Positions 8,578-40,595 of a stretch of 41,949 nt of DNA are shown here, piece after piece. Each line of letters starts with the position of its first letter. Within the stretch, counting starts at the first letter, position 1. The stretch is from a virus (lineage: Duplodnaviria > Heunggongvirae > Uroviricota > Caudoviricetes): IMG/VR virus record IMGVR_UViG_2558860473_000005, positions 1 through 41,949 of that record, one strand, 5' to 3'. The position numbers and the translations under genes are program-made. The notes beneath the pieces were generated by a model that was not told the DNA's origin, did no database searches, and saw only the letters and a program-made list of their open reading frames with translations.

Positions 8578-8739
8578 TTATTCGCATCGCATGACAACAT
8601 CAAATTTTTCGAGATTACTTTGTCGCAACAATCCTTCTTCTACGCGGTCAGCTTTTCTATAATTATCAAATTCGAAATGTTTAATTACTTCTTTTGTTTC
8701 TCGCTCTATAACTTCAACAATGTATTTCTTATTCATCAT
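8578..8739 (-). CDS. Small hypothetical protein, 53 aa (MMNKKYIVEVIERETKEV...)
   Basis: Hand-translated; ATGA overlap with the upstream gene stop; AT-rich. Confidence 0.35.
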   Translation of the reverse strand: MMNKKYIVEVIERETKEVIKHFEFDNYRKADRVEEGLLRQSNLEKFDVVMRCE

Positions 8740-9032
8740 TCTTCCCCAAGAGCTTTTCTTATTGCTGCGAGACCTTTATTAACAGCTCCATACCATTCTG
8801 GATATGTTGTCGTTGTTCTATTTTTGGTTTGCTTAAGTAATAACTGAAGTGCTTCGAGAAGGTCAGGTGCTGCCGCTATTAGATTGGCATCTTCAATGCA
8901 TTGAACTTCCTCACAGATTGCAATATACGAACGCCAGCCTGCGCCATTTTCAAGTGAGTCTGCCTGGATGATTTTAATCTCATCGCCATCCATCATTATT
9001 TCCCACTTACCTTCAGTACCTTTAAATTCCAT
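8736..9032 (-). CDS. Hypothetical early protein, 98 aa
   Basis: ORF in the leftward N-dependent operon. Confidence 0.5.
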   Translation of the reverse strand: MEFKGTEGKWEIMMDGDEIKIIQADSLENGAGWRSYIAICEEVQCIEDANLIAAAPDLLEALQLLLKQTKNRTTTTYPEWYGAVNKGLAAIRKALGEE

Positions 9033-9050
9033 GTTAGCCTCTGTTGTTTA

Positions 9051-9083
9051 TGCCAAAAATAAAGGCCACCATCAGGCAGCCTT
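9051..9083 (-). terminator. Imperfect hairpin plus U-run (tL1-like)
   Basis: Hairpin AAGGCCACC-atca-GGCAGCCTT with two mismatches, followed by a U-run on the minus strand; overlaps the stop of the 9072..9323 gene. Confidence 0.3.
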
Positions 9084-9323
9084 GTTGTAAATGTTGCAGG
9101 TATCAAGTAAGTAATTAGATGGAGCGCCATAAATTATGAATTCATCGTTTGTCGGGTCCATCTCCATCTCTTGGCCTATTGCCATTCTTGCGTCAGTGTC
9201 GTCAGCGGCGAAGCATAAAACAGCCCACGCCCCCATTGTTTTAAAAAGAACTGCAATTGGCTGTGGTTTTACTGAATTTGCGTTAGCGCGAAAATCACAA
9301 ATCGCACTTTCATGAAACTCCAT
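9072..9323 (-). CDS. Hypothetical early protein, 83 aa
   Basis: ORF immediately downstream of N. Confidence 0.5.
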   Translation of the reverse strand: MEFHESAICDFRANANSVKPQPIAVLFKTMGAWAVLCFAADDTDARMAIGQEMEMDPTNDEFIIYGAPSNYLLDTCNIYNKAA

Positions 9324-9331
9324 ATCTCACC

Positions 9332-9658
9332 TCAAATAAGTGGTTTGCTGCCTAATTTCATTTTCTGGCGACCAACACAAGTCACACCCATTTCACTGCG
9401 TGGCTTGCTGTACCATGTGCGCTGATTCTTGCGCTCAATACGTTGCAGGTTGCTTTCAATCTGTTCGTGGTATTCAGCCAGCACCGTAAGGTCTATCGGA
9501 TTCAGTGCGCTTTCTACTCGTGATTTCGGTTTGCGATTCAGCGAGAGAATAGGGCGGTTAACTGGTTTTGCGCTTACCCCAACCAACAGGGGATTTGCTG
9601 CTTTCCATTGAGCCTGTTTCTCTGCGCGACGTTCGCGGCGGCGTGTTTGTGCATCCAT
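9332..9658 (-). CDS. N: Antitermination protein N (lambda-type), 108 aa
   Basis: Begins MDAQTRRRERRAEKQAQWKAANPLLVG (arginine-rich boxB-binding motif); essentially lambda N by recall; start set at the internal Met of the track ORF. Confidence 0.9.
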   Translation of the reverse strand: MDAQTRRRERRAEKQAQWKAANPLLVGVSAKPVNRPILSLNRKPKSRVESALNPIDLTVLAEYHEQIESNLQRIERKNQRTWYSKPRSEMGVTCVGRQKMKLGSKPLI

Positions 9659-9768
9659 CTGGATTCTCCTGTCAGTTAGCTTTGAGTAACGCGCCGTGAT
9701 GCTTATCTCCACGGTTGCTGTCTTGCAGCTGCATTTCGCGCTACTCAAAGCTTTCTGCTTTGAATGCT

Positions 9769-9799
9769 GCCCTTCTTCAGGGCTTAATTTTTAAGAGCG
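9769..9799 (-). promoter_or_regulatory. nutL (boxA CGCTCTTAA, boxB GCCCTGAAGAAGGGC)
   Basis: Reverse complement reads CGCTCTTAAAAATTAAGCCCTGAAGAAGGGC, the canonical lambda nutL. Confidence 0.85.
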
Positions 9800-9828
9800 T
9801 CACCTTCATGGTGGTTAGTGCGTCCTGC

Positions 9829-9870
9829 TGATGGCTAAATAGTACGATTTGTACTTTATCGAGTCAATAC
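9829..9870 (-). promoter_or_regulatory. Putative PL promoter with OL-type dyad AGTACgatttGTACT
   Basis: On the minus strand: -35 TTGACT, 17-bp spacer, -10 TACTAT, overlapping a perfect 15-bp palindrome that shares the GTAC half-site with the OR sites. Confidence 0.5.
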
Positions 9871-9930
9871 AAAATGTTCTAAATATAATTAGTTTTTTAT
9901 AACGCTTTGTATTTAATGGGTTTATATTTT

Positions 9931-9960
9931 GGAAAAAGAAAACCCGACGCTAAGGTCGGG
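9931..9960 (-). terminator. Rho-independent terminator downstream of cI
   Basis: Hairpin CCCGAC-gctaag-GTCGGG followed by a U-run on the minus strand, about 30 bp after the cI stop. Confidence 0.6.
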
Positions 9961-9992
9961 TTATTGTTGTGTGTTTTAGAGTGGTGAGGCTG

Positions 9993-10652
9993 TTAACTAA
10001 ATGTCTCTTCAGGCCACTGGCTGGCGATAACTTTCCCTACTACGGAACAGCTATCATTGCATGGAATCATTGGATATTGCGGGTTTAGTGGCTGTAGGAA
10101 CACCTGACCGCTATCCCTGATCAGTTTCTTGAAGGTAAACTCGTCACCACCAAGTCTGGCTATGCAGAAATCACCTGGCTCAACAGCCTGATCAGGGTCA
10201 ACGAGAATTAACATCCCGTCAGGAAAGCTTGGCTTGGATCCTGTTGGCGCGGTCATGGAATTACCTTCAACTTCAAGCCAAAACGCACAATCACTGGCTT
10301 TTTTGGTTGTGCTGACCCATCTCTCCGCATCACCTTTGGTAAAGGTTCTAAGCTCAGGCGAGAACATCCCGGCCTGAACATGAGAAAAAACAGGGTACTC
10401 ATATTGTTTTTTAACGGGGGCAGATGAGTATTCGCCAACAGGTGAAAATGTACCGTCGTGGTTGAATGAGACGTTATCAATACCAAGGTATTTAAACACC
10501 ACACCAATCTCGTCAAGAGATGGATGACGAGATCCGCGCAACCAGTGACCAATTCCACCCTGCGTCATACCAAGCTCTTCAGCTAACTTCTCTTGAGTTA
10601 TGCCGAGCTCTTTCATTCTGGATCTAGCCAGTTCATACCATTTCATTTTCAT
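9993..10652 (-). CDS. cI: CI-type prophage repressor (HTH N-terminal domain plus S24/LexA-like C-terminal domain), about 219 aa
   Basis: C-terminal half ([37 protein letters not shown]...) is near-identical to lambda CI by recall; N-terminal DNA-binding domain is different; start taken at MKMKWYEL (10652) or two codons later (10646). Confidence 0.85.
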
Positions 10653-10763
10653 ACCCCTATTATTACGCTCTGTACTAAAACCATCCATGCACAAGATGTA
10701 TTTTTTGTTTGCATTCTAAAAGTACATATCGTATTATTGTTTCATGGTTACTATGGAGGGCAT
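10653..10763 (+). promoter_or_regulatory. OR/PR/PRM region: two GTAC dyads (ATTACgctctGTACT 10662-10676; AGTACatatcGTATT 10721-10735) and putative PR (-35 TTGCAT 10709-10714, -10 TATTAT 10732-10737)
   Basis: Divergent cI-cro intergenic region; the dyads share half-sites with the OL dyad; PR has a 17-bp spacer and is overlapped by the second dyad. Confidence 0.5.
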
Positions 10764-10979
10764 ATGAGCAACCTACGAAAATATCGAGAGTCACTGAATA
10801 TCTCTCAAACAACACTTGCTAAGGCAGTTGGATGCACACAGGGAGCTATCGGACATTGGGAATCTGGTCGTCGCTTCCCAGACCTTAAAACATGCCGTGC
10901 TCTTGTTGAGTGCCTAAACAAGTTAGGCGCAAAAGTCAGTCTTGATGACGTGTTCCCGCCGGAACACAAAGCCGCTTAA
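10764..10979 (+). CDS. cro: Cro-like HTH (XRE-family) regulator, 71 aa
   Basis: GGAGGG RBS upstream of ATG; helix-turn-helix segment ISQTTLAKAVGCTQGAIGHWESG; divergent from cI; not lambda Cro. Confidence 0.8.
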   Translation: MSNLRKYRESLNISQTTLAKAVGCTQGAIGHWESGRRFPDLKTCRALVECLNKLGAKVSLDDVFPPEHKAA

Positions 10980-10988
10980 GACATTCCA

Positions 10989-11019
10989 GCTCTTACACAT
11001 CCCAGCCCTGAAAAAGGGC
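10989..11019 (+). promoter_or_regulatory. nutR (boxA GCTCTTACA, boxB GCCCTGAAAAAGGGC)
   Basis: Matches lambda nutR by recall; the tR1 region follows before cII. Confidence 0.8.
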
Positions 11020-11098
11020 ATCAAATTAAACCACACCTATGGTGTATGCATTTATTTGCATACATTCAATCAATTGTTATCTAAGGAAATACTTACAT

Positions 11099-11392
11099 AT
11101 GGTTCGTGCAAACAAACGCAACGAGGCTCTACGAATCGAGAGTGCGTTGCTTAACAAAATCGCAATGCTTGGAACTGAGAAGACAGCGGAAGCTGTGGGC
11201 GTTGATAAGTCGCAGATCAGCAGGTGGAAGAGGGACTGGATTCCAAAGTTCTCAATGCTGCTTGCTGTTCTTGAATGGGGTGTTGTCGACGACGACATGG
11301 CTCGATTGGCACGACAAGTTGCTTCGATTCTCACCAATAAAAAACGCCCGGCGGCAACCGAGCGTTCTGATCAAATACAAATGGAATTTTAA
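11099..11392 (+). CDS. cII: Transcriptional activator CII (lambda-type), 97 aa
   Basis: MVRANKRNEALRIESALLNKIAMLGTEKTAEAVGVDKSQISRWKRDWIPKF... near-identical to lambda CII by recall. Confidence 0.9.
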   Translation: MVRANKRNEALRIESALLNKIAMLGTEKTAEAVGVDKSQISRWKRDWIPKFSMLLAVLEWGVVDDDMARLARQVASILTNKKRPAATERSDQIQMEF

Positions 11393-18623: not shown

Positions 18624-18947
18624 ATGAAGATGCCAGAAAAAAATGACCTGTTAGCCGCCATTCTCGCGGCAAAGGAACAAGGCATCGGGGCAATCCTTGC
18701 GTTTGCAATGGCGTACCTTCGCGGCAGATATAATGGCGGTGCGTTTACAAAAACAGTAATCGACGCAACGATGTGCGCCATTATCGCCTGGTTCATTCGT
18801 GACCTTCTCGACTTCGCCGGACTAAGTAGCAATCTCGCTTATATAACGAGCGTGTTCATCGGCTACATCGGTACTGACTCGATTGGTTCGCTTATCAAAC
18901 GCTTCGCTGCTAAAAAAGCCGGAGTAGAAGATGGTGGAAATCAATAA
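18624..18947 (+). CDS. S: Holin S (lambda S107/S105), 107 aa
   Basis: [39 protein letters not shown]... essentially lambda S by recall, incl. dual-start motif. Confidence 0.9.
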
Positions 18948-19407
18948 TCAACGTAAGGCGTTCCTCGATATGCTGGCGTGGTCAGAGGGAACTGATAACG
19001 GACGTCAAAAAACCAGAAATCATGGTTATGACGTCATTGTTGGCGGAGAGCTATTCACTGATTACTCCGATCACCCTCGCAAACTTGTCACGCTAAACCC
19101 CAAACTCAAATCAACAGCAGCCGGACGTTACCAGCTTCTTTCCCGTTGGTGGGATGCCTATCGTAAGCAGCTTGGCCTGAAAGACTTCTCTCCGAAAAGT
19201 CAGGACGCTGTGGCACTGCAACAGATTAAAGAGCGTGGCGCTTTACCGATGATTGATCGCGGTGATATTCGTCAGGCTATCGACCGTTGCAGCAATATCT
19301 GGGCTTCACTGCCGGGGGCTGGTTATGGTCAGTTCGAGCATAAGGCTGACAGCCTGATTGCAAAATTCAAAGAGGCTGGCGGAACGGTCAGAGAGATTGA
19401 GGTATGA
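18931..19407 (+). CDS. R: Endolysin R (lytic transglycosylase), 158 aa
   Basis: Near-identical to lambda R by recall. Confidence 0.9.
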
Positions 19408-19841
19408 GCAGAGTCACCGCGATTATCTCCGCTCTGGTTATCTGCATCATCGTCTGTCTGTCATGGGCTGTTAATCATTACCGTGATAACGCCATGACCT
19501 ACAAAGAGCAGCGCGATAAAGCCACATCCATCATCGCTGATATGCAGAAGCGTCAACGTGATGTAGCAGAACTCGACGCAAGATACACAAAGGAGCTTGC
19601 TGATGCTAACGCGACTATCGAAAGCCTCCGTGCTGATGTTTCTGCTGGTCGTAAGCGCCTGCAAGTCGCCGCCACCTGTGCAAAGTCAACGACCGGAGCC
19701 AGCAGCATGGGCGATGGAGAAAGCCCAAGACTTACAGCAGATGCTGAACTCAATTATTACCGTCTCCGAAGCGGAATCGACAGGATAACCGCGCAGGTTA
19801 ACTACCTGCAGGAATACATCAGGACGCAATGCCTTCGATGA
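19404..19841 (+). CDS. Rz: Spanin inner-membrane subunit Rz, 145 aa
   Basis: N-terminal TM segment and coiled-coil periplasmic domain; N-terminus matches lambda Rz. Confidence 0.85.
19597..19788 (+). CDS. Rz1: Spanin outer-membrane lipoprotein Rz1, embedded in the +1 frame of Rz, 63 aa
   Basis: Lipobox LVVSAC followed by a proline-rich segment; entirely inside Rz. Confidence 0.8.
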
Positions 19842-20280
19842 TAGCGATAATTCTACTCATCATCCTTCACATCTGGCTCTGTAGACAGGGTGGTGATCAC
19901 TTCTGGAGTGAATCCAGATTAAACATCTCATTGCTGATGCTTGAAGTTAAGCATATGGCGCGCGGCAAGGGGCTGCGTTGAGATAAGAGCCAGTTCATTA
20001 CAAAGCCTATCTACGGGTGGGCTTGATAATGAAACCGGAATTTATTCTGGGTAACCAGTTACGGCAGTACAGCGAAACAACCCAAGCCAGAAAGTGGGGA
20101 AATAACACTGGCAGCCACTGAAAGATGAACCTCCAGCCTTATGGCAAAAAAGATTCTTTGTGGTGGCGGACTGATGGAAAGACATCGGATAGAATAAAAC
20201 AGTGGCTAGGGTAGCTGCCGAAAAGCGGAATCGTCACCGCCTGCCACTGAATCTATGACGAACAACTAGACGAGGTTGTG

Positions 20281-31523: not shown

Positions 31524-32855
31524 ATGGCTACGTGGCAACAGGGTATTAATTCTGGTGGTTTTCTGGCTGGAATTGGTGCGCAAAATGAGAATGCGCCAAA
31601 GGCAAGCGACATTAACGCAACGCTTGGTCTGATTCGCGAAAACAATGAACTGGCTCGCTCAGGTGCAAATAACGTTGGTCTGACCGCGTTACGTGGTCTG
31701 GCTGGAGTTGCTGATATTTACAATCAGGAACAGCAACAGAAAGCTATTAGTGCGTTCAATAAGGTTCACGCTGATGCATGGGCTTCTGGTGATCCATCGG
31801 GACTATTTAAGTTTGCCCGGGAAAATCCAGCGTTTGTTGCACAGGCACAACAGGCGTTTTCCGGTCTTAATGAGCAGCAACGCAACGATATGGGCGATTT
31901 AGCCATGAGGGCTAACGTCGCTCTTTCTCAGGGACCGGAAGCCTACAGTAAATTCATTACTGACAACAAGGACAGGTTAAATCGCGTTGGTGCTAATGCT
32001 GACTGGATGATTCAGACAGGTATCCAGAATCCAGAGCAGCTATCACACATGCTGACTACTATGACGCTAGGGGCTGTTGGTCCGGATAAAATGCTGGATT
32101 ATCAGGATAAGATGGTTGGTCGCCAACTTGAGAAAGGGCGATTGGATGAAAGCATCCGTCAGGCTGACATGGAGAACGCGAGAGGATGGGCAAATATCCA
32201 AAACGCTCAACTAGACAGGGCTCAGCGGGCACAAATGCATAATGATAACGTAGCCCTGAAGTTGCAGGAATTAGGGATGAAACAACAGGAAAGCGGAAAG
32301 ATTGACCCAAAACTTGTTCGAGATCTGAATAGTGATATTAATGGGTTCTCAAAGAATTATTCTGCAATGCGCAGTGCTTCTGACAACCTACAAGCCCTTG
32401 GGAAGCGCAACACTCCAGCCGCGCAGTTGGGAATGATTTTCAACTATATGAAATCGCTGGATCCGCAATCTGTGGTACGCGAAGGTGAGCAAGTGCAGGT
32501 AAAACGCACTGATGGAATATTTGGCACACTTGGTAACTATGTTAGCCAATTATCTAACGGCAAGATGCTGAATAATGAGCAAGTCCAAGACTTAATCAAC
32601 ACCTCAAAACTGATGGCAAATACTGAAGGCGAAAAGTTTAACCAGCAAATGGATGATTATCTTTCAACTTATGGAGATTCTCTCCCCAGCGGACTAACTA
32701 AGCAATTGCAATCCAGAAAAGCCAAGCTGTATGAAGATATTCAGCAGCCTGCGCAACAACAGAGCAATAACCAACAACCGACAAATACCCAACAGCAGCA
32801 GAGTCAATCCGGATCATATACCTCAAAATCAGGCATTCAATTTACGGTGGAATGA
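31524..32855 (+). CDS. Ejection protein, P22 gp20-like, 443 aa
   Basis: Size and synteny; Q/N-rich low-complexity segments. Confidence 0.7.
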
Positions 32856-34978
32856 TGAAAGTAACTGCAAACGGAAAGACATTTACCTTCCCTGATGGTA
32901 CGAGCACGGAAGATATTGGCACCGCCATTGATGAGTATTTTGCTGGTCAGGCTGTTCAGCAACAAACAGTTAATCAGGCCAATAATGAACCAGCGCGTGA
33001 AGAACCATCATTGATGCAACAAGCTGGCGATTGGCTCACTGGTGGTCAAAGTGCAGGGCAAATTGCAGAACAGGCTGGTCGTGGTCTGGTAAACATACCA
33101 TTTGACGTATTGCAGGGTGGCGCAAGTCTGATTAATGCAATCAGTCAGGGGCTTGGTGGGCCAAAAGTATTGGATGATGTCTATCGTCCAGTCGATCGAC
33201 CGACAGACCCTTACGCGCAAGCCGGTGAAACAATTGGTGGGTATCTCCTGCCAATTGGCACAGCGGCAAAAGCTGCTGGAGCGCCAGCAAAGCTCGCTGG
33301 AGATATCGGTTCCGCAGGAAACATGATTGCAGGTTCTCTTGCTGATGCTGCAAATCAGGAGGGCGATTTTGCACAAAATGCTGCCATTAACGGTGGTATC
33401 AATATTGGTGCTCAAGGCGTTCTTTCAGGTGTCGGGCGCGTTATTGCGCCAAGGGTTTCACAGGCTCTTGGTGGTGCAGCACTGAATTCTGCTAATGATG
33501 TTTCCAGGATGGCAAAGTCAGGTGCTGGGCGTCAGTCAATTGCCAGTCAGGCCGCTAATGTGTCCGAAGATGTAGCAAAAGCGGCTGAGTCTGCTGGAAT
33601 TGATATAAACGCATTAACACCAGGAATGCGATCTGGAAGTCGTGGAATTGCACAAGCCGAAGGCGCATTGGCATCAACACCAGGAATCGTTCAGGACGCC
33701 CATCAGGCAGCATTTAACGAAATATCATCAAAGTTAAGTCGAAACCTTGATGAATTTGGGGCCGCATCTGGAACGGCATCAGAAAAAAGTGCGGCTATAA
33801 AACAAAGGATTCTTCAAAATCTTGATCAGATGAAGGATGCCGAGCGCGCGGCATGGGATGACGTGCGGTCAACAATGCCAAATCAAAAATCAAGAATGCT
33901 AAATGGTAATGCCGTTATTCAGGCAGAGCGATCTGCTGGCATACCGCTTACTCCTGAAATGAAACAGTTTGTTCAGGCAAACAATCAAGGTGGAGTAACA
34001 TTTGATGGCATGAAAGCATGGAGAGCGAAATTTGCTGATGCGGAGCAAAAATATAAGCGTAGCGGAGAGGCAAATGCGGCAAGGAGAGCAGGGGAAATAC
34101 GCCGGGCAATTACTGATGATATGCGCACAATGGCGGAAAACGGCGGATTTCTTGATGACTGGCAAAAAGCTAATGATCTGTCTAAAGCGAGGTTATCAGC
34201 ACAAGAGAGTGCAGAGTCTGTTTTCGGGCGTGATTTGGCAACAGATGCACTGATTACGAATGGAGTAAAATCCCTTCAATCATCGTCAGCTAAAGGTCTT
34301 AATGGTCCTGCTGGATTCCATTCTATGATCCGCGCGCTGCCAGAATCAGAGCGTGTTCCTGCTATATCATCAATGTTGCAAGATGCTATCTCGCATGGTG
34401 TACGTGGTGGCAAAGCTGATGCAGCAGGAATTAACCATATCGCAGAGATACTCACTCCACAAAATGTAAAAGCCATTAGCCGATATTCCTCAGAGCTTGG
34501 AAGAATTGCAGATGCATATGGCACTCTTGCAAGAGCAGCAGTGAAACCTCAGCAGTATATTGAAAGAACAGGGAGAACTGCCAATGTACTACGCGATCTG
34601 GATGCTGGTTTATCCAACGTCACATCAACAGTGTTAAATGCAATTGCTAACTCAACATCAGGTGCCATTGTTGGTGGAGCAGGAGGGGGCATTGCAGGCG
34701 CTGCCGCAGGTGCTTTAGTTGGCGCTGGGTTAAAAGGCGCTGTATCTAAAATTGCCACCACACGTAGTGGTCGATATGCGATAGAGAAAGCTGTTCAGGA
34801 AGCCACCAAAGCAGTAAGAGCAGGCGGAAGCAAAGAAGCATTACTGGCGGCGGAACGCAGATTTATGGCAAATAAGGCCGCCGTAAAAGCAATACGTGAT
34901 ACAGTCGGAAACGAAGAGTTTCAGCGCTTAGCGAGGGCTGGTATTGTGGCATCGCTAAGCGGAATGGCACGGGAGTAA
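32852..34978 (+). CDS. Ejection protein, P22 gp16-like, 708 aa
   Basis: Size and synteny; Ala/Gly-rich. Confidence 0.7.
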
Positions 34979-35311
34979 TTAATCATCCATGGATGGATTG
35001 AGCTTATCTCGTGTTGATGTGGCGGTTTTCCCTACATTCCTAAGCCAAGCTTTCAAATCCTTGATATTGTCATTGATTTCATGAATATCTTCCTTTTTTA
35101 ATCTGTCAATATTATTTTCAATAATTTCAATGGATTGCTCAATATCAGATATAGTGAATGATAGTTTGCTCTTCTCATCTGTTATTGAGTTTTTAAGTAC
35201 TTCGTTCTCAGTCTTGAGGTCAGATATCTTTTGCTTTAAAGATGCCAGTTGGCACTGAACCACAATGAGTGCGATAGCTATCACGACAAATGTTGCATAC
35301 ACGCTAACCAC
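34979..35311 (-). CDS. Membrane-anchored coiled-coil protein (N-terminal TM helix then coiled coil), 110 aa; cassette gene C
   Basis: Hydrophobic YATFVVIAIALIVVQ segment followed by heptad-like K/E-rich sequence; GTG start; AT-rich by eye. Confidence 0.55.
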   Translation of the reverse strand: MVSVYATFVVIAIALIVVQCQLASLKQKISDLKTENEVLKNSITDEKSKLSFTISDIEQSIEIIENNIDRLKKEDIHEINDNIKDLKAWLRNVGKTATSTRDKLNPSMDD

Positions 35312-35322
35312 CTTGGTTTTAT

Positions 35323-35676
35323 CTACTTGAGGACTAATCCGTTAAGTGCATCAAGGATTTTAGATACGTAACTACCGAAAATGTAGGTGCAAAAAGCAAA
35401 AACAACCGTGACGACAGCACCGATAGCCTTAATGGTTGTTTTCATTGTGGTGATACTAGTTTCAATACTGCTAAGCCTGGTGTCAATTGACTTCACGTCT
35501 TTTTGAATGATCTCAATGTCACGCTTGATATAGCTGACATCAGACTCTAACTTTGCGACCCTTGATTCCATGCCATCACCTCCTTCGCCTCCAGACCTGT
35601 TCTTATCCTTTGTGTTCTCAGGATGGATACGAGATATGTTTTTTTCACTAATTGATGTTTCAATTATATCAAGCAT
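35323..35676 (-). CDS. Tail-anchored coiled-coil membrane protein (XhlA-like architecture), 117 aa, or 82 aa from the internal start at 35571; cassette gene B
   Basis: Coiled-coil segment then C-terminal hydrophobic helix AIGAVVTVVFAFCTYIFGSYV; strong GGAGG RBS before the internal Met; 8-bp overlap with gene A if the long start is used. Confidence 0.55.
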   Translation of the reverse strand: MLDIIETSISEKNISRIHPENTKDKNRSGGEGGDGMESRVAKLESDVSYIKRDIEIIQKDVKSIDTRLSSIETSITTMKTTIKAIGAVVTVVFAFCTYIFGSYVSKILDALNGLVLK

Positions 35677-36079
35677 CTTTCACATGACTCACGGAAAAGT
35701 AGGCTTGCGCAGAATGCACTAGAGTGTTGTCTTTGCTGATGGATACTCGAATTAAGTAATCCCCGTCAGCATCAAGTTTGCATTTATCGAAATGCATAGA
35801 CATCGATGTTGCCAAGGTGTTCCTGATCTCATTGTGTCCTTTTGCCTTAATCCATACGCCTTTATCACCGCTTACACTGATTTCTAACTCATTCTCGATT
35901 CTATAGAGACAAGCTGAAACCCAATATGGTGTATCATGAATTAAACCGAGAAAGTGAACCTGAAAATCAAGGTCAGTAGTCACAGGTAACTCATCTGTCT
36001 CCATGATTAACATGGGTGATTTTTCATCATTTTCAGACTTATGGTAAGGAAAAAGGAATGCTATTTTTTCAGTGTTCAT
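35669..36079 (-). CDS. Hypothetical soluble protein, 136 aa; cassette gene A
   Basis: Start overlaps the mnt stop by 4 bp (translational coupling); no recognisable family. Confidence 0.55.
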   Translation of the reverse strand: MNTEKIAFLFPYHKSENDEKSPMLIMETDELPVTTDLDFQVHFLGLIHDTPYWVSACLYRIENELEISVSGDKGVWIKAKGHNEIRNTLATSMSMHFDKCKLDADGDYLIRVSISKDNTLVHSAQAYFSVSHVKDA

Positions 36080-36318
36080 TTCCCATCCCTTAAACGTTTA
36101 AGTACATTGATGGTTACATCAAGAGCCTCTTGCTCTGACTTTGCCAGTTGCTGACTGCTTAATGGTATAACCTGCTCTTTATGCATTTTTATCCACAACT
36201 GGATAGCAGCAATAATCTCAGCATTGATAGAGCGTCGATTAGTGGCAGCAATATGCGTAAGTTGCTGTTTTATCTCATCTGGCATTCTTACGTTGAATTG
36301 CGGATCATTTCTAGCCAC
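36076..36318 (-). CDS. mnt: Mnt-like ribbon-helix-helix repressor, 80 aa
   Basis: MARNDPQFNVRMPDEIKQQL... resembles P22 Mnt; divergent from arc; GTG start with GGAGA RBS. Confidence 0.75.
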   Translation of the reverse strand: MARNDPQFNVRMPDEIKQQLTHIAATNRRSINAEIIAAIQLWIKMHKEQVIPLSSQQLAKSEQEALDVTINVLKRLRDGK

Positions 36319-36411
36319 GTCATTCTCCTTTTATTTATTGACATGCTAGAACGGTAGTAGTACGCTTTCAATAGTAGTACGGTGCTATCATTTGATGAAA
36401 TGGAGGTGAAT
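36319..36411 (+). promoter_or_regulatory. immI-like divergent promoter/operator region (Pant-like -35 TTGACA 36338-36343; direct repeats TAGTAGTAC at about 36355 and 36373)
   Basis: Intergenic region between divergent mnt and arc; candidate -35/-10 elements on both strands overlapped by two 9-bp direct repeats. Confidence 0.45.
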
Positions 36412-36573
36412 ATGCAAGGTGCAAGAAAAATGCCGCAGTTCAATTTGCGGTGGCCTAAAGAAGTATTGGATTTGGTACGCAAGGTGGCGGAAGAGAATGG
36501 TCGGTCTGTTAATTCTGAGATTTATCAGCGAGTAATGGAAAGCTTTAAGAAGGAAGGGCGCATTGGTGCGTAA
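36412..36573 (+). CDS. arc: Arc repressor (ribbon-helix-helix), 53 aa
   Basis: [53 protein letters not shown] is near-identical to P22 Arc by recall; GGAGGTG RBS. Confidence 0.9.
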
Positions 36574-36577
36574 AGTT

Positions 36578-36609
36578 GAAGCCCCAACTGCTGGAACAGT
36601 CAGGGCTTC
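36578..36609 (+). promoter_or_regulatory. Extended hairpin in the arc-ant intercistronic region
   Basis: GAAGCCC...GGGCTTC with inner ACTG/CAGT stem; no U-run on either strand. Confidence 0.35.
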
Positions 36610-36641
36610 GGTATCAACAAAACTTACGAGGTATTATTGAT

Positions 36642-37532
36642 ATGTCAAGCTTAGCAAAGTCAACTGTAAATTGCACTAATAGCATCATCATTTCTGACGT
36701 CAAGATTCATATGGATTCAGAGGGGCGTTACTCGCTTAATGACCTTCATGTAGCGTCTGGGAAGGAGGAAAAACATCAGCCAGCTTTCTTCATGCGTAGA
36801 AATGAAACTATTGAATTAATTAATGAAATTTTTAATTCTGCGGATATGCAGAATAAGAATCCCGTCCTTTCTAAGAAAGGTCGATATGGTGGAACCTACG
36901 TGTGCAAGGAGCTTGTTTACTCCTACGCCATGTGGATTAGTGCATCCTTTGCGCTGAAGGTTATCCGTGCATATGACGCAATGGTTACTGCCACACAAGA
37001 TAGGAAGGCTATTGGAGGTAAAACTTCAGTAGCTGAACGCACACCGCTACGAGATGCAGTAAACATGCTGGTAGGAAAGAAAGGACTTCGCTATGACGAT
37101 GCATACAATATGGTTCATCAGCGTTTTGGTATTGACAGCATTGATGAACTTTCAATTGAACAAATCCCGCTGGCCGTAGAGTACATCCACAGGGTAGTGC
37201 TTGAAGGTGAGTTCATTGGCAAACAAGAGAAGAAAACCAACGAGCTTTCTGCAAAAGAAGCAAACAGCCTTGTATGGTTATGGGATTATGCCAACCGTTC
37301 ACAGGCATTATTCCGCGAACTGTATCCGGCGCTAAAACAAATTCAATCGAACTATTCCGGCAGATGCTACGACTACGGTCATGAGTTCTCGTATGTTATC
37401 GGAATGGCGAGAGACGTTTTAATAAACCACACACGAGATGTTGATATTAATGAGCCAGACGGACCAACGAATCTTTCCGCATGGATGAGACTTAAGAATA
37501 AAGAATTACCTCCTTCAGTACATAACTACTGA
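36642..37532 (+). CDS. ant: Antirepressor Ant (KilA-N domain N-terminus), 296 aa
   Basis: KilA-N-like segment ([24 protein letters not shown]...); downstream of arc as in P22 immI; GAGGT RBS. Confidence 0.8.
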
Positions 37533-37632: not shown

Positions 37633-39441
37633 ATGACAGATTCAATAAATGCCAATGTTGTAGTGAGCATGCCATCGCAACTCTTCACTATGGCTCGTTC
37701 TTTTAAAGCCGTAGCCAATGGCAAAATTTATATCGGTAAAATTGACACTGACCCGGTAAATCCTGAAAACCAGATTCAGGTTTATGTAGAGAACGAAGAC
37801 GGCTCTCACGTTCCTGTTTCTCAACCAATCATCATTAACGCTGCTGGTTACCCAGTATATAACGGACAGATTGCCAAGTTTGTAACCGTGCAAGGCCATT
37901 CTATGGCTGTTTATGATGCGTATGGTGCACAGCAGTTTTATTTTCCTAATGTGCTGAAGTATGACCCTGATCAGTTTGGTCCAGACTTCAAAGAGCAGTT
38001 ATCTCAATCAGGGGAATACATTAATGATGATTCAAAAGGTGATGCATTAATTGGCGTAAGACAGCCCGTTGCCGGGTCGGTAGCTATCACACAGCATGAT
38101 AAAAACGCACAAATAATCAACTTAAAAGATTTTGGTGCTAAGTGCGATGGTGTAACTGATGACACAGTGGCAATTCAGGCTGCTGTAGCTGCTGCGCATA
38201 CTGGTGTCCGTATAGTTCAACCTGCAGGGGTTTGCCTTACATCTCAGCCGTTGTCATTCACTAGTCCTGCATTTTGGTATGGAGATGATGGCGCTCGCAT
38301 TAAGCTCATTAGTGGCAGTCATGACTATGTTATGGAAATTGATCTTCGCGGGCCTAGTGGTTCGTTCTGGGGTTATGGGTCACATATTGAAAACATTATC
38401 TTTGATGGTGGTGGTCACGCAAAAGATGGCCTTTCATTGCGTGGTGTTATCGGAGGTATATTCAAAAATATTCGTGGGACAAATATATCAAGGACCGCTA
38501 TTCATGAATGGTGGACCCAACTTTGCCACTATGAAAATATTCAATGCAGTAATAATATTGAAGCATTCCAAACAACCCCTATTCACGGAATCTTATCTGA
38601 TTGTGAGTTTGGAACTGGTAATGATCGTGGGTCTTCTGCAAATACTTACATGAATACCACTATTGAACATACCTCTGGTAGTGGGATTTGTGGGGTGTTT
38701 ATGTCTAATTGTACATTTATAAATGGCACATCAGAAGGTAACGATATTGGCATTGAGTTTGGTCACGCTACTGATGATAGAAACCAATCAGTTGGGAATT
38801 CAGTTATTGGCATGGATCTTGAAGTTAATTCTTTAACTGATGTGTTATTACATAAAACAACATATGCAAATGACTTTATTGGTCTAAAAGCTGGTTATTC
38901 ATCTCCAGCCATTCAGGTGCAAGGCTCATATGCTAATAGCTTTATTGGTGGAGTAAGCAGTGGTATAGATTTTGACTCATCATCGCATGATAATAAAGTA
39001 ATAGGTATGAATCTTTTAGGCAACGATTCTATCATCGTAGATAACGGGTTAAGAAATTCATATGAGAATATTTTCAATATTTCATCTGGAGCTAAAAAAG
39101 AAAGCACTAACCCTTATCCATCGCGTAGCAACAATATAATTTCATCAAATGGTACTGTGCAAATTAACCCATTTTTATCATCATACTGTGTTGTGTCGGC
39201 TACTGGTTCACCAATTAATGTTACGTCTGTAGCAAAAAAATTAGACGGTGCGACTATTGATATGACTATTCATAACATTTCTGGATCTGATGAATTAATA
39301 GTAAACTGGTCTTCTGACTTCAGAGTTTCTGGATGGACAAGCCCGGCAACAGGGCGCCACCGGTCTATAAGATTTGCTTATGATGCAAACTACGGATACT
39401 GGACTGCTATATCTATGAGTCAGTCAGATATTCTGAACTAA
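37633..39441 (+). CDS. Tailspike protein: P22-type N-terminal head-binding domain plus divergent beta-helix receptor-binding domain, 602 aa
   Basis: First ~115 residues match the P22/Sf6 tailspike N-terminus by recall; the rest has repetitive G/N/S/T-rich strands typical of parallel beta-helix depolymerases. Confidence 0.85.
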
Positions 39442-39453
39442 GATTTATGCTGT

Positions 39454-39476
39454 GGGGGGGATTATTCCCCCTGTTT
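39454..39476 (+). terminator. Terminator between the convergent tailspike and acyltransferase genes
   Basis: Hairpin GGGGGG-attatt-CCCCC followed by TGTTTTACTTT; overlaps the acyltransferase stop. Confidence 0.55.
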
Positions 39477-40595
39477 TACTTTCCTCATATCCACCAGTTT
39501 ACCAGGGATGCTCATAAATATCTTATTTCTAATCTTGTTAGTAAGTATCACTTCAATATATTTATGCGAAAGAAATGCAATAAAAATTGATAAAATTAGT
39601 AAAATAGTGAACCCGTATACATTGTGCATCACACCTGGATTATTAGCCTCAACCTGCCATGAAATGTAACTACCTACCTGGTTATGAAGCAGATACCATG
39701 AGAAGGAAATATCACCAAGCATTACAAAAAATGATGGTGTAATTTTTGTTATAACTTCATCATTTATTACGAACGCCACTAAGAGGAAGTATGCAATGAT
39801 GCCTGTCTTTAAATTATAACCTTCAATAGAACCATTGAAGACTGCAGTCATAAAAATTAATGCCGATATAGCAGTGAATGAGTATTTTAATCTATTGCTC
39901 CATGATTTTGCTGAACGCACTGTGTGCCCAGCAAGGATGCCTAAAGCAAATTCAATTACTATCGGATTTGTTAAAAAGCTAAGTTCTGGAGTACCAGTTT
40001 TATAACCTGAAGTGGATAATGTTACATTTCCAGTCAACATATATCCTACAAGGATAGTTGTCATTATCCATACGACTATGCCAGAGGTTCTTTTATTGAA
40101 TAATAAACAAAGTGCGAATACAAGATAGAAGTATAATTCATAGTTAAGCGTCCATCTAATAACAAATATACCACCAGCATCAACATACAAAGGAGGGTAC
40201 GCATCCGTAAAAGGAGAGAATGTTAAAGCACTCAGTAAGTTTTCCACCTTAGCTTGGTCAACGAAGATTCCAACTTCCCATGTAAAGTAGAAAGCTGTAA
40301 AGAGAGCAATAAAATATGTAGGAAAAATCCTTGTGAGTCTTTCTACGGAAAAGAATATAGCAGACTTTATACCAGATGGCTTACGGCTAGTGATATGCAT
40401 CATAATAAAACCACTTATTACGAAGAACAAATCAACACCAGCAGAACCCCAAGATAAATATTTATTAGGGATAGTTAAATCTCCATACAATGGTGATAAC
40501 CAAAATCTGTAGTGAAAAAGAACTACAGACAATGCAGCTAATCCTCTAAGTATCTGTACTGAGCTAAGTTTATTGTTCATTATTAAACCGATCAC
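39462..40595 (-). CDS. Acyltransferase family 3 (OafA/Oac-like) integral membrane O-acetyltransferase, 377 aa
   Basis: Multi-TM protein with acyltransferase-3-like N-terminal motif (ILRGLAALSVVLFHY); very AT-rich by eye; between tailspike and int, as oac is in Sf6. Confidence 0.75.
   Translation of the reverse strand: MIGLIMNNKLSSVQILRGLAALSVVLFHYRFWLSPLYGDLTIPNKYLSWGSAGVDLFFVISGFIMMHITSRKPSGIKSAIFFSVERLTRIFPTYFIALFTAFYFTWEVGIFVDQAKVENLLSALTFSPFTDAYPPLYVDAGGIFVIRWTLNYELYFYLVFALCLLFNKRTSGIVVWIMTTILVGYMLTGNVTLSTSGYKTGTPELSFLTNPIVIEFALGILAGHTVRSAKSWSNRLKYSFTAISALIFMTAVFNGSIEGYNLKTGIIAYFLLVAFVINDEVITKITPSFFVMLGDISFSWYLLHNQVGSYISWQVEANNPGVMHNVYGFTILLILSIFIAFLSHKYIEVILTNKIRNKIFMSIPGKLVDMRKVKQGE

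Follow-up and report, generated by a model that had tools for sequence, protein, structure and literature searches.

The 41,949-nucleotide stretch of DNA analysed here over its whole length (record IMGVR_UViG_2558860473_000005, henceforth the window) is a P22-like (Lederbergvirus-type) prophage in which gene 16, encoding an ejection protein, and the immI region bracket an interval of three minus-strand genes, referred to here as A, B and C. Comparison of homologous loci shows that B supplies the conserved membrane part of a mobile cassette of two genes, paired with a variable, small cytoplasmic partner that in the window is A. B is likely made as two isoforms, a long one of 117 amino acids (aa) and a short one of 82 aa, and C is, by its sequence and position, hkcB, an independent gene that adjoins gene 16 in many P22-like phages. 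The anatomy of the locus is thereby corrected: the unit is A plus B and not B plus C, as originally predicted. Judged from genomic context, the chances are about even that A-B is expressed in lysogens and serves exclusion or abortive infection, the cytoplasmic partner being variable and the membrane effector conserved. The features of the interval, in coordinates of the window, are as follows.

34979-35302, minus strand: gene C, an hkcB homologue of 107 aa, with a GTG start at 35302 (phrog_5962, E 1e-56).
35237-35293, minus strand: predicted N-terminal membrane helix of C, followed by a coil and a conserved C-terminal motif.
35323-35676, minus strand: gene B, long isoform, 117 aa (phrog_6136, E 1e-37).
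35323-35571, minus strand: gene B, predicted short isoform, 82 aa, from ATG 35571; its onset is also the onset of the predicted helix.
35422-35571, minus strand: coiled coil of B, residues 36-85, recognised by its heptads and carrying the family signature RVAKLESDVxYIKRD.
35365-35427, minus strand: predicted C-terminal transmembrane helix of B (hydropathy, conservation).
35326-35364, minus strand: conserved 13-aa tail of B after the helix, SKILDALNGLVLK (conservation).
35575-35585, minus strand: internal Shine-Dalgarno (SD) site of B, AAGGAGGTGAT, made of Glu-Gly-Gly-Asp codons, with its GGAGG core 7 nucleotides (nt) before the ATG.
35669-36079, minus strand: gene A, 136 aa, predicted soluble all-beta protein, the conserved partner of B.

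B has a single hydrophobic segment at residues ~82-104 (Kyte-Doolittle 19-residue maximum 2.08). It is preceded by a coiled coil of seven uninterrupted heptads, in which the a/d positions between residues 36 and 85 are all hydrophobic (15/15, mostly Ile/Val, vs 9% elsewhere). An AlphaFold2 model built with 48 homologues shows residues 35-116 as one continuous helix and residues 1-34 as disordered (predicted local distance difference test score, pLDDT, <50); in the long form, the coil follows an N-terminal tail that is disordered and variable and includes a Gly-rich tract. The arrangement first proposed for B, a coiled coil followed by one C-terminal hydrophobic helix, was thus confirmed. A PDB sequence search with B returned weak matches only, mostly to trimeric coiled coils (P22 gp26, reovirus sigma-1, Lpp and trimeric adhesin stalks), which together with Ile/Val at both a and d suggests that the coil is a trimer. 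The same search with C returned no match.

A, B and C each fall in PHROGs families of unknown function. The profile search with B gave 1,596 clusters (50% identity representatives) at E <= 0.001, an upper bound that includes some long coiled-coil repeat proteins, and 135 at E <= 1e-10; the top matches listed are mostly proteins of 70-160 aa. All 20 sampled family proteins (20/20) have a variable tail, a Gly tract, the motif (M/L)ExRVAKLESDVxYIKRD, a coil of variable length and a membrane helix. B also matches phrog_3556 (276 aa, E 1e-13). Additionally, proteins of 900-2,300 aa (P0102, P0108, P0109 and others) match the coil profile in 6-11 separate stretches; such matches could reflect composition, or a second use of the conserved coil motif as a repeating unit in large surface or phage proteins.

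The cassette was defined from 23 distinct B homologues read together with their DNA (loci L004-L039 and the window). A same-strand partner open reading frame (ORF) of 75-161 aa ends between -32 and +6 nt from the long start of B in 22 of these 23 loci. The partners belong to at least three unrelated families and a few others, while the B motif is kept: a beta-rich or beta-sandwich family including A (phrog_5893), a CxxC...CxxC zinc-ribbon family (phrog_4293) and a type of 92-95 aa. Between loci, A is just 22-27% identical where the B core is 55-80% identical. A itself is a predicted soluble beta-sandwich, with a pLDDT of 76 in the best of five inconsistent models. Partner and B recur as a cassette in Gamma- and Alphaproteobacteria, mostly directly downstream of a prophage repressor.

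This repressor-adjacent synteny was seen in more than 15 loci. The order cI-type repressor, partner, B was found in L004-L012, L016-L021, L025, L026, L030 and L031, and also in L034, L036, L039 and L054. Same-strand placement directly behind a cI-type repressor gene, between cI and N, was observed in E. coli, Salmonella, Enterobacter and Yersinia prophages, in phage ENT1 and in Shewanella, Pseudoalteromonas, Pseudomonas and Vibrio loci. The order Mnt, partner, B occurs in the window, in six further places with an identical B protein and in L044. Inserts of partner plus B in reverse orientation among tail genes were found in L013, L040 and L042. Between cI and N lies a recognised mosaic hotspot, filled by rexAB in lambda and by bstA in BTP1 (PMC8585504); sieA of P22 is found between gene 16 and gene 9 (PMC10883804). 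In the window the cI-type repressor gene (9993-10694, minus strand) is directly followed by that of an N-like antiterminator (9332-9748; gap 244 bp), so that the rexAB/bstA-type slot is empty and the A-B cassette lies in immI instead.

Other genes occupy or adjoin these slots. In CUS-3 (L001 4126-5129) and in NU14 (L047 2847-3850), mnt and hkcB are separated not by A-B but by a 199-aa gene and a YafO-family toxin gene, and a further YafO gene adjoins the A-B-type cassette of L042. A 168-aa protein with a lipoprotein-like N-terminus (MLRLMLLLCCSLYLLGC) is encoded between cI and partner-B in a Yersinia prophage (L019 2943-3449). In Thorsellia (L037 519-2276), a 585-aa Schlafen/AlbA_2 plus HATPase_c_4 protein is encoded ~450 bp upstream of partner-B; this domain combination is often found near defence genes.

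The internal start of B was characterised by its pairing with the anti-SD sequence. As originally predicted, a GGAGG lies 7 nt upstream of an in-frame ATG (35571-35569) that would give an 82-aa protein; the preceding site, AAGGAGGTGAT, is an 11-nt match to the anti-SD complement with a duplex energy of -13.0 kcal/mol. The annotated ATG at 35676 has, as was also proposed, a weak ribosome-binding site (-2.3 kcal/mol), though it overlaps the stop codon of A (ATGCTTGA), an overlap absent from the original prediction. Such an arrangement is typical of translational coupling and suggests it here. All real plus-strand gene starts measured in the window (n = 23; -2.6 to -11.8 kcal/mol) are weaker than the internal site, and the in-frame internal ATGs of real genes (n = 170) have a mean of -2.0 and a best value of -7.0 kcal/mol. 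The strength of the internal SD site of B is far above chance. Among the 23 homologues, the median is -10.6 kcal/mol for the internal site vs -6.0 kcal/mol for the long start.

The 35-codon extension ahead of the internal start also behaves as coding sequence. Over the 28 codons upstream of the internal start, the 23 homologues contain 3, 26 and 65 stops in frames 0, +1 and +2, respectively, the three in frame 0 marking only the ORF limits of the shortest extensions. Ratios of nonsynonymous to synonymous substitution rates (dN/dS) in the extension are 0.29 and 0.14 in two pairs of homologues and 0.77 in a third. Since the extension is open and under purifying selection and the internal start is conserved, both products of B are likely. 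The original prediction had left a choice between two isoforms and a mis-set start, and the former is the better reading. In the structure model, the helix opens with the internal Met.

That only long B is made, the GGAGG arising incidentally from a conserved poly-glycine linker and the Met merely opening the helix, is doubtful but has several observations in its favour. The Gly-Gly tract pairs with the anti-SD under any codons (recoded mean -8.45 kcal/mol), so that part of the strong internal ribosome-binding site is a by-product of the amino acid sequence; the internal site is weak in 4 of the 23 homologues; the long frame is conserved under the purifying selection described above; and in L044 the extension is just 13 residues long and has its own SD site. 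The first two of these points weigh against an internal start. The real codons of the tract nevertheless give -9.78 kcal/mol, which only 2 of 1000 synonymous recodings match, in a test in which the homologues are not fully independent. A start-capable codon is moreover present at the internal Met position in all 25 variants with DNA read (25/25), where the non-ATG codons are TTG in three independent lineages (L022/L023, L039 and L042), GTG in L030 and ATT in L044; given local codon usage, the joint chance of the three TTG cases and the GTG case is 0.0008. The window site also exceeds all 23 measured gene starts, and in L054 (P0054) the gene caller itself picked the internal Met. P0054 was considered as a stand-alone short B gene and rejected: the long frame is uninterrupted there and, once more, overlaps the partner stop, and it is no proof of a short-only form.

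The tail and the core of B have partly separate histories. In the L005/L009 pair, synonymous divergence (dS) is 0.65 in the tail and 0.05 in the core, and a mosaic joint lies at the Gly tract. L013 and L040 have a common partner (74% identity) and a common tail with different C-terminal halves of B. The N-terminal extension travels with the partner gene, a pattern that simple linkage could explain too. RNA folding of 35530-35700 (minus strand) gave z = +0.44 vs shuffled sequences with the internal SD site unpaired, and no sign of a structure hiding the site. A double-glycine bacteriocin leader was considered for the Gly tract; by eye, the variable tails have no common leader-like pattern.

In the window, mnt, A, B and C are four minus-strand genes in series with overlaps or tiny gaps only, and the stop of A overlaps the long start of B by 8 nt. 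The flanking features are listed here.

32852-34978, plus strand: gene 16, ejection/DNA-transfer protein (phrog_770, E 4e-233; also annotated by the Prokaryotic Genome Annotation Pipeline, PGAP), convergent with C and marking the sieA-equivalent position.
35321-36082, no strand: mosaic insert of 762 bp holding exactly A and B (megablast limits).
36076-36318, minus strand: mnt-like repressor gene of the Arc family, 80 aa, which opens the operon (Pfam Arc, 49 bits; PGAP "Arc family DNA-binding protein").
36343-36371, minus strand: promoter-like site TTGAAA-17-TAGCAT upstream of the mnt-like gene, located by consensus scan alone.
immI genes: mnt 36076-36318 (minus), arc 36412-36573 (plus), sar RNA 36574-36640 (minus) and ant to 37532.

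The mnt-like gene has 86% DNA identity to mnt of phage Emek, and the promoter-like site ahead of it is likely the equivalent of Pmnt, driving mnt-A-B-C. Before B, the consensus scan located no further promoter-like site on the minus strand, and inside mnt-A-B-C it located no terminator-like site on that strand, so that a single transcript from the Pmnt-like promoter would be the simplest reading. Megablast alignments with other P22-like phages take in C and the end of gene 16, break off at ~35320 and resume at mnt at ~36083. The GC content of the A-B insert is 35-43% vs 45-50% in gene 16. The A-B-C segment is 100% identical to that of E. coli 266917_2 (L003), in which the tailspike ORF is 883 aa (8655-11306) vs 602 aa in the window (37633-39441, plus strand). 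The six places with an identical B protein carry different tailspike domains, which indicates that the mnt-A-B-C block moves between phages of different receptor specificity.

Several further elements were observed around this locus. The sar antisense RNA (Rfam 66 bits, E 1e-11) lies between arc and ant, and the immI region is therefore complete (mnt, arc, sar, ant). The mechanically called ant ORF (TTG 36576) overlaps sar, and the PGAP start at 36642 is more likely. An O-antigen acetyltransferase-like gene (39462-40595, minus strand; phrog_3333, E 3e-89), likely a lysogenic-conversion gene, lies downstream of the tailspike gene. A match to the int-alpA small RNA (Rfam 41 bits, gathering threshold 35.8) was found at 20199-20261 (plus strand), just past the lysis cassette.

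Gene C has a hydrophobic segment at residues 4-22 (maximum 2.31). Of the architecture first proposed for it, an N-terminal helix followed by a long coil, the helix stood and the coil was clear over residues 19-50 only, where 7 of 10 a/d positions are hydrophobic. The start was also revised: the GTG at 35311 used originally (110 aa) has an SD energy of -1.6 kcal/mol vs -7.7 kcal/mol for the GTG at 35302, and the latter is most likely because of its stronger SD site, its choice by PGAP and the resulting length of 107 aa, typical of homologues. No positive charge precedes the helix and three Lys follow just after it; the positive-inside rule would favour a cytoplasmic coil.

C is assigned to hkcB by its full-length match and by its position convergent with gene 16. 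The phrog_5962 match covers residues 2-110 of the 110-aa version, and identity is 87-92% to CUS-3 hkcB, epsilon34 gp14 and the SEN22 homologue and 50% to HK620 hkcB, with which C also shares its length. The family is without known function (PMC2629481). In HK620, epsilon34, E. coli EC24 and many E. coli prophages hkcB stands alone beside gene 16, whereas in the window it lies behind A-B and probably on the mnt transcript. C was compared with spanin models and gave no significant match (spanin PHROGs, E 0.004-0.03; NCBIfam LysB, E 0.23). No other minus-strand ORF of at least 30 aa, such as an embedded o-spanin, lies inside C, and C is outside the lysis cassette. The holin, endolysin and Rz genes sit apart at 18624-19841 (Rz 19404-19841, phrog_13, E 2e-72), in keeping with the original view that neither B nor C is a lysis spanin. 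With low confidence, C may be a separate inner-membrane exclusion factor in place of P22 sieA; many P22-like prophages of E. coli consistently have hkcB where sieA would lie.

The original prediction joined B and C into a membrane complex (a pore, a fusogen or an envelope-spanning device or sensor). Both are single-pass coiled-coil membrane proteins by prediction, and in this prophage they are adjacent (11-20 nt), on the same strand and probably on one transcript, an arrangement that is stable in all six places with an identical B protein (6/6). No C homologue, however, lies downstream of B in any of the 22 other B loci (0/22), where the conserved neighbour is an upstream partner gene instead, analogous to A. 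C is found without B in ~154 of the 155 complete E. coli genomes matching C and also in HK620, epsilon34, SEN22 and CUS-3, and the mosaic joint falls exactly between B and C. Profile-profile alignment of B with C by hhalign was insignificant (30% probability), a result on which diverged paralogues and hetero-coil partners were also rejected. By this gene distribution the complex is largely refuted, and we regard it as the least probable of the readings considered. Nearly as improbable is a role for B as an XhlA-type lysis accessory that aids the phage holin at the end of the lytic cycle, in the manner of PBSX XhlA, which is required for lysis together with XhlB and XlyA (PMC5589764). The XhlA likeness noted originally holds for the architecture (short, with a coil and a C-terminal membrane helix), and several homologues are named "hemolysin XhlA" by NCBI. 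The match to Pfam XhlA (PF10779; residues 36-95) is weak, at 24.8 bits (E 2e-5) vs a gathering threshold of 34.7 bits; 16 of the 24 aligned family members match weakly, none of them (0/24) at threshold, and ten sampled distant members gave no match at E <= 0.001. A bridge from B to true XhlA via the family profile was sought and none was shown, the distant members being without an XhlA match. The likeness fails, too, in genomic setting: none of ~25 contexts (0/~25) places B beside a holin or endolysin gene, and in the window B follows a repressor gene and runs opposite to the late operon, with a full lysis cassette elsewhere.

An addiction module, in which B would be a membrane toxin and A its neutraliser and the prophage would be stabilised rather than defended, is unlikely, though less so than the lysis and B plus C readings. 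It would account for an overlapping, apparently translationally coupled two-gene operon with the putative neutraliser upstream, and for the YafO-family toxin pair in the same slot of CUS-3 and NU14 and the YafO gene beside the L042 cassette. An integrated prophage, however, gains little by post-segregational killing, and the repressor placement and the exchange of unrelated partners fit a sensor-effector defence at least equally. The addiction and defence readings also overlap, because many toxin-antitoxin systems act as abortive-infection systems. Several points count against the exclusion reading itself. Its genomic context is guilt by association, and 9 of the ~25 contexts could not be assigned to a class. 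The model of A comes from a shallow alignment, in which one of five AlphaFold2 models was confident, and its fold is a generic beta-sandwich with Ig-like and arrestin-like structural neighbours. The trimer suggested for B depends on weak coiled-coil similarity. A search of PADLOC-DB 2.0 gave no significant match, with coiled-coil noise only (best E 0.0003-0.002) and nothing for A, and no functional study of the A, B or C families was found in the literature.

Under the exclusion reading, the cassette would be made in lysogens and would act in superinfection exclusion or abortive infection in the manner of lambda RexA/RexB. B would be a tail-anchored inner-membrane protein whose coil faces the cytoplasm, the compartment in which A, which has no signal sequence, would also be located. 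The fast-evolving partner may sense, or be titrated by, an infecting phage, upon which B would be released or activated, oligomerise through its Ile/Val-rich, probably trimeric coil and compromise the membrane. The long isoform would be produced by coupling to translation of the partner, and its 35-residue disordered tail, co-diverging and co-inherited with the partner, may serve as a handle by which the partner docks on or regulates B. Lacking this handle, the short isoform from the strong internal site would escape partner control, and the ratio of long to short isoform would set the trigger threshold. In this complete form, as a widespread uncatalogued prophage immune module with swappable sensors, one tail-anchored effector and an isoform-set firing threshold, the proposal is held tentatively and is somewhat more likely to be wrong than right.

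Genes on repressor transcripts are a classic source of exclusion and abortive-infection systems (rexAB, sieA, bstA), and the cassette fills the same slots across many Proteobacteria. No Pfam family, PADLOC entry or paper was found for it. If it is a defence module, it would add small membrane effectors of a new family, controlled by swappable sensors, and Rex-like logic would have been built from entirely different parts. B would also offer a compact example of an internal start that controls isoforms, which one silent mutation could test. The cassette is a well-defined and widespread candidate, with a function deduced from context.

The logic of a repressor-linked operon with a cytoplasmic partner and a small membrane effector is known, and the parts and the 35-codon dual start are new. 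Lambda RexA/RexB is likewise a pair of genes for a cytoplasmic and a small inner-membrane component, transcribed in lysogens together with the maintenance repressor gene, and expression of A-B in lysogens would match it. Homologues of the A-B cassette take the same slot between cI and N (PMC8585504). Searches of Pfam, NCBIfam and PADLOC with A and B gave no Rex match; RexB has four membrane helices and B has one helix and a long coil, RexA is 279 aa and A is 136 aa and predicted to be all-beta, and the partner of B, unlike RexA, is interchangeable between unrelated families. P22 SieA is a multi-pass prophage inner-membrane protein with the motif FxRYPxEAxxFNK that blocks DNA injection (PMC10883804). 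Its gene shares with A-B-C the region between gene 16 and the tailspike gene, next to mnt; B and C each have one hydrophobic segment and lack the SieA motif, so that genomic position alone is common to them. PBSX XhlA is, like B, a short protein in which an N-terminal coiled coil leads to one C-terminal membrane helix; B differs from it in its repressor-operon context, its Proteobacteria hosts, its Gly-rich tract and its internal start.

HK97 gp15, a tail-region moron, was reportedly described in 2012 by Cumby et al. as a membrane exclusion protein. Its placement, and that of similar morons for membrane exclusion proteins, resembles that of the reverse-oriented cassettes among tail genes in L013, L040 and L042, although gp15 is a single gene; we know of no sequence relationship between it and the A-B cassette. 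Dual starts are familiar from the holins lambda S105/S107 and P22 gene 13, and nested in-frame genes from T7 4A/4B and phiX174 A/A*. Like the holins, B is a small phage membrane-protein gene with two in-frame starts and predicted isoforms that differ at the N-terminus. Its starts, however, are 35 codons apart vs 1-3 in the holins, its gene lies outside the lysis cassette, and its extra segment is a disordered, presumably cytoplasmic tail vs a single charged residue.

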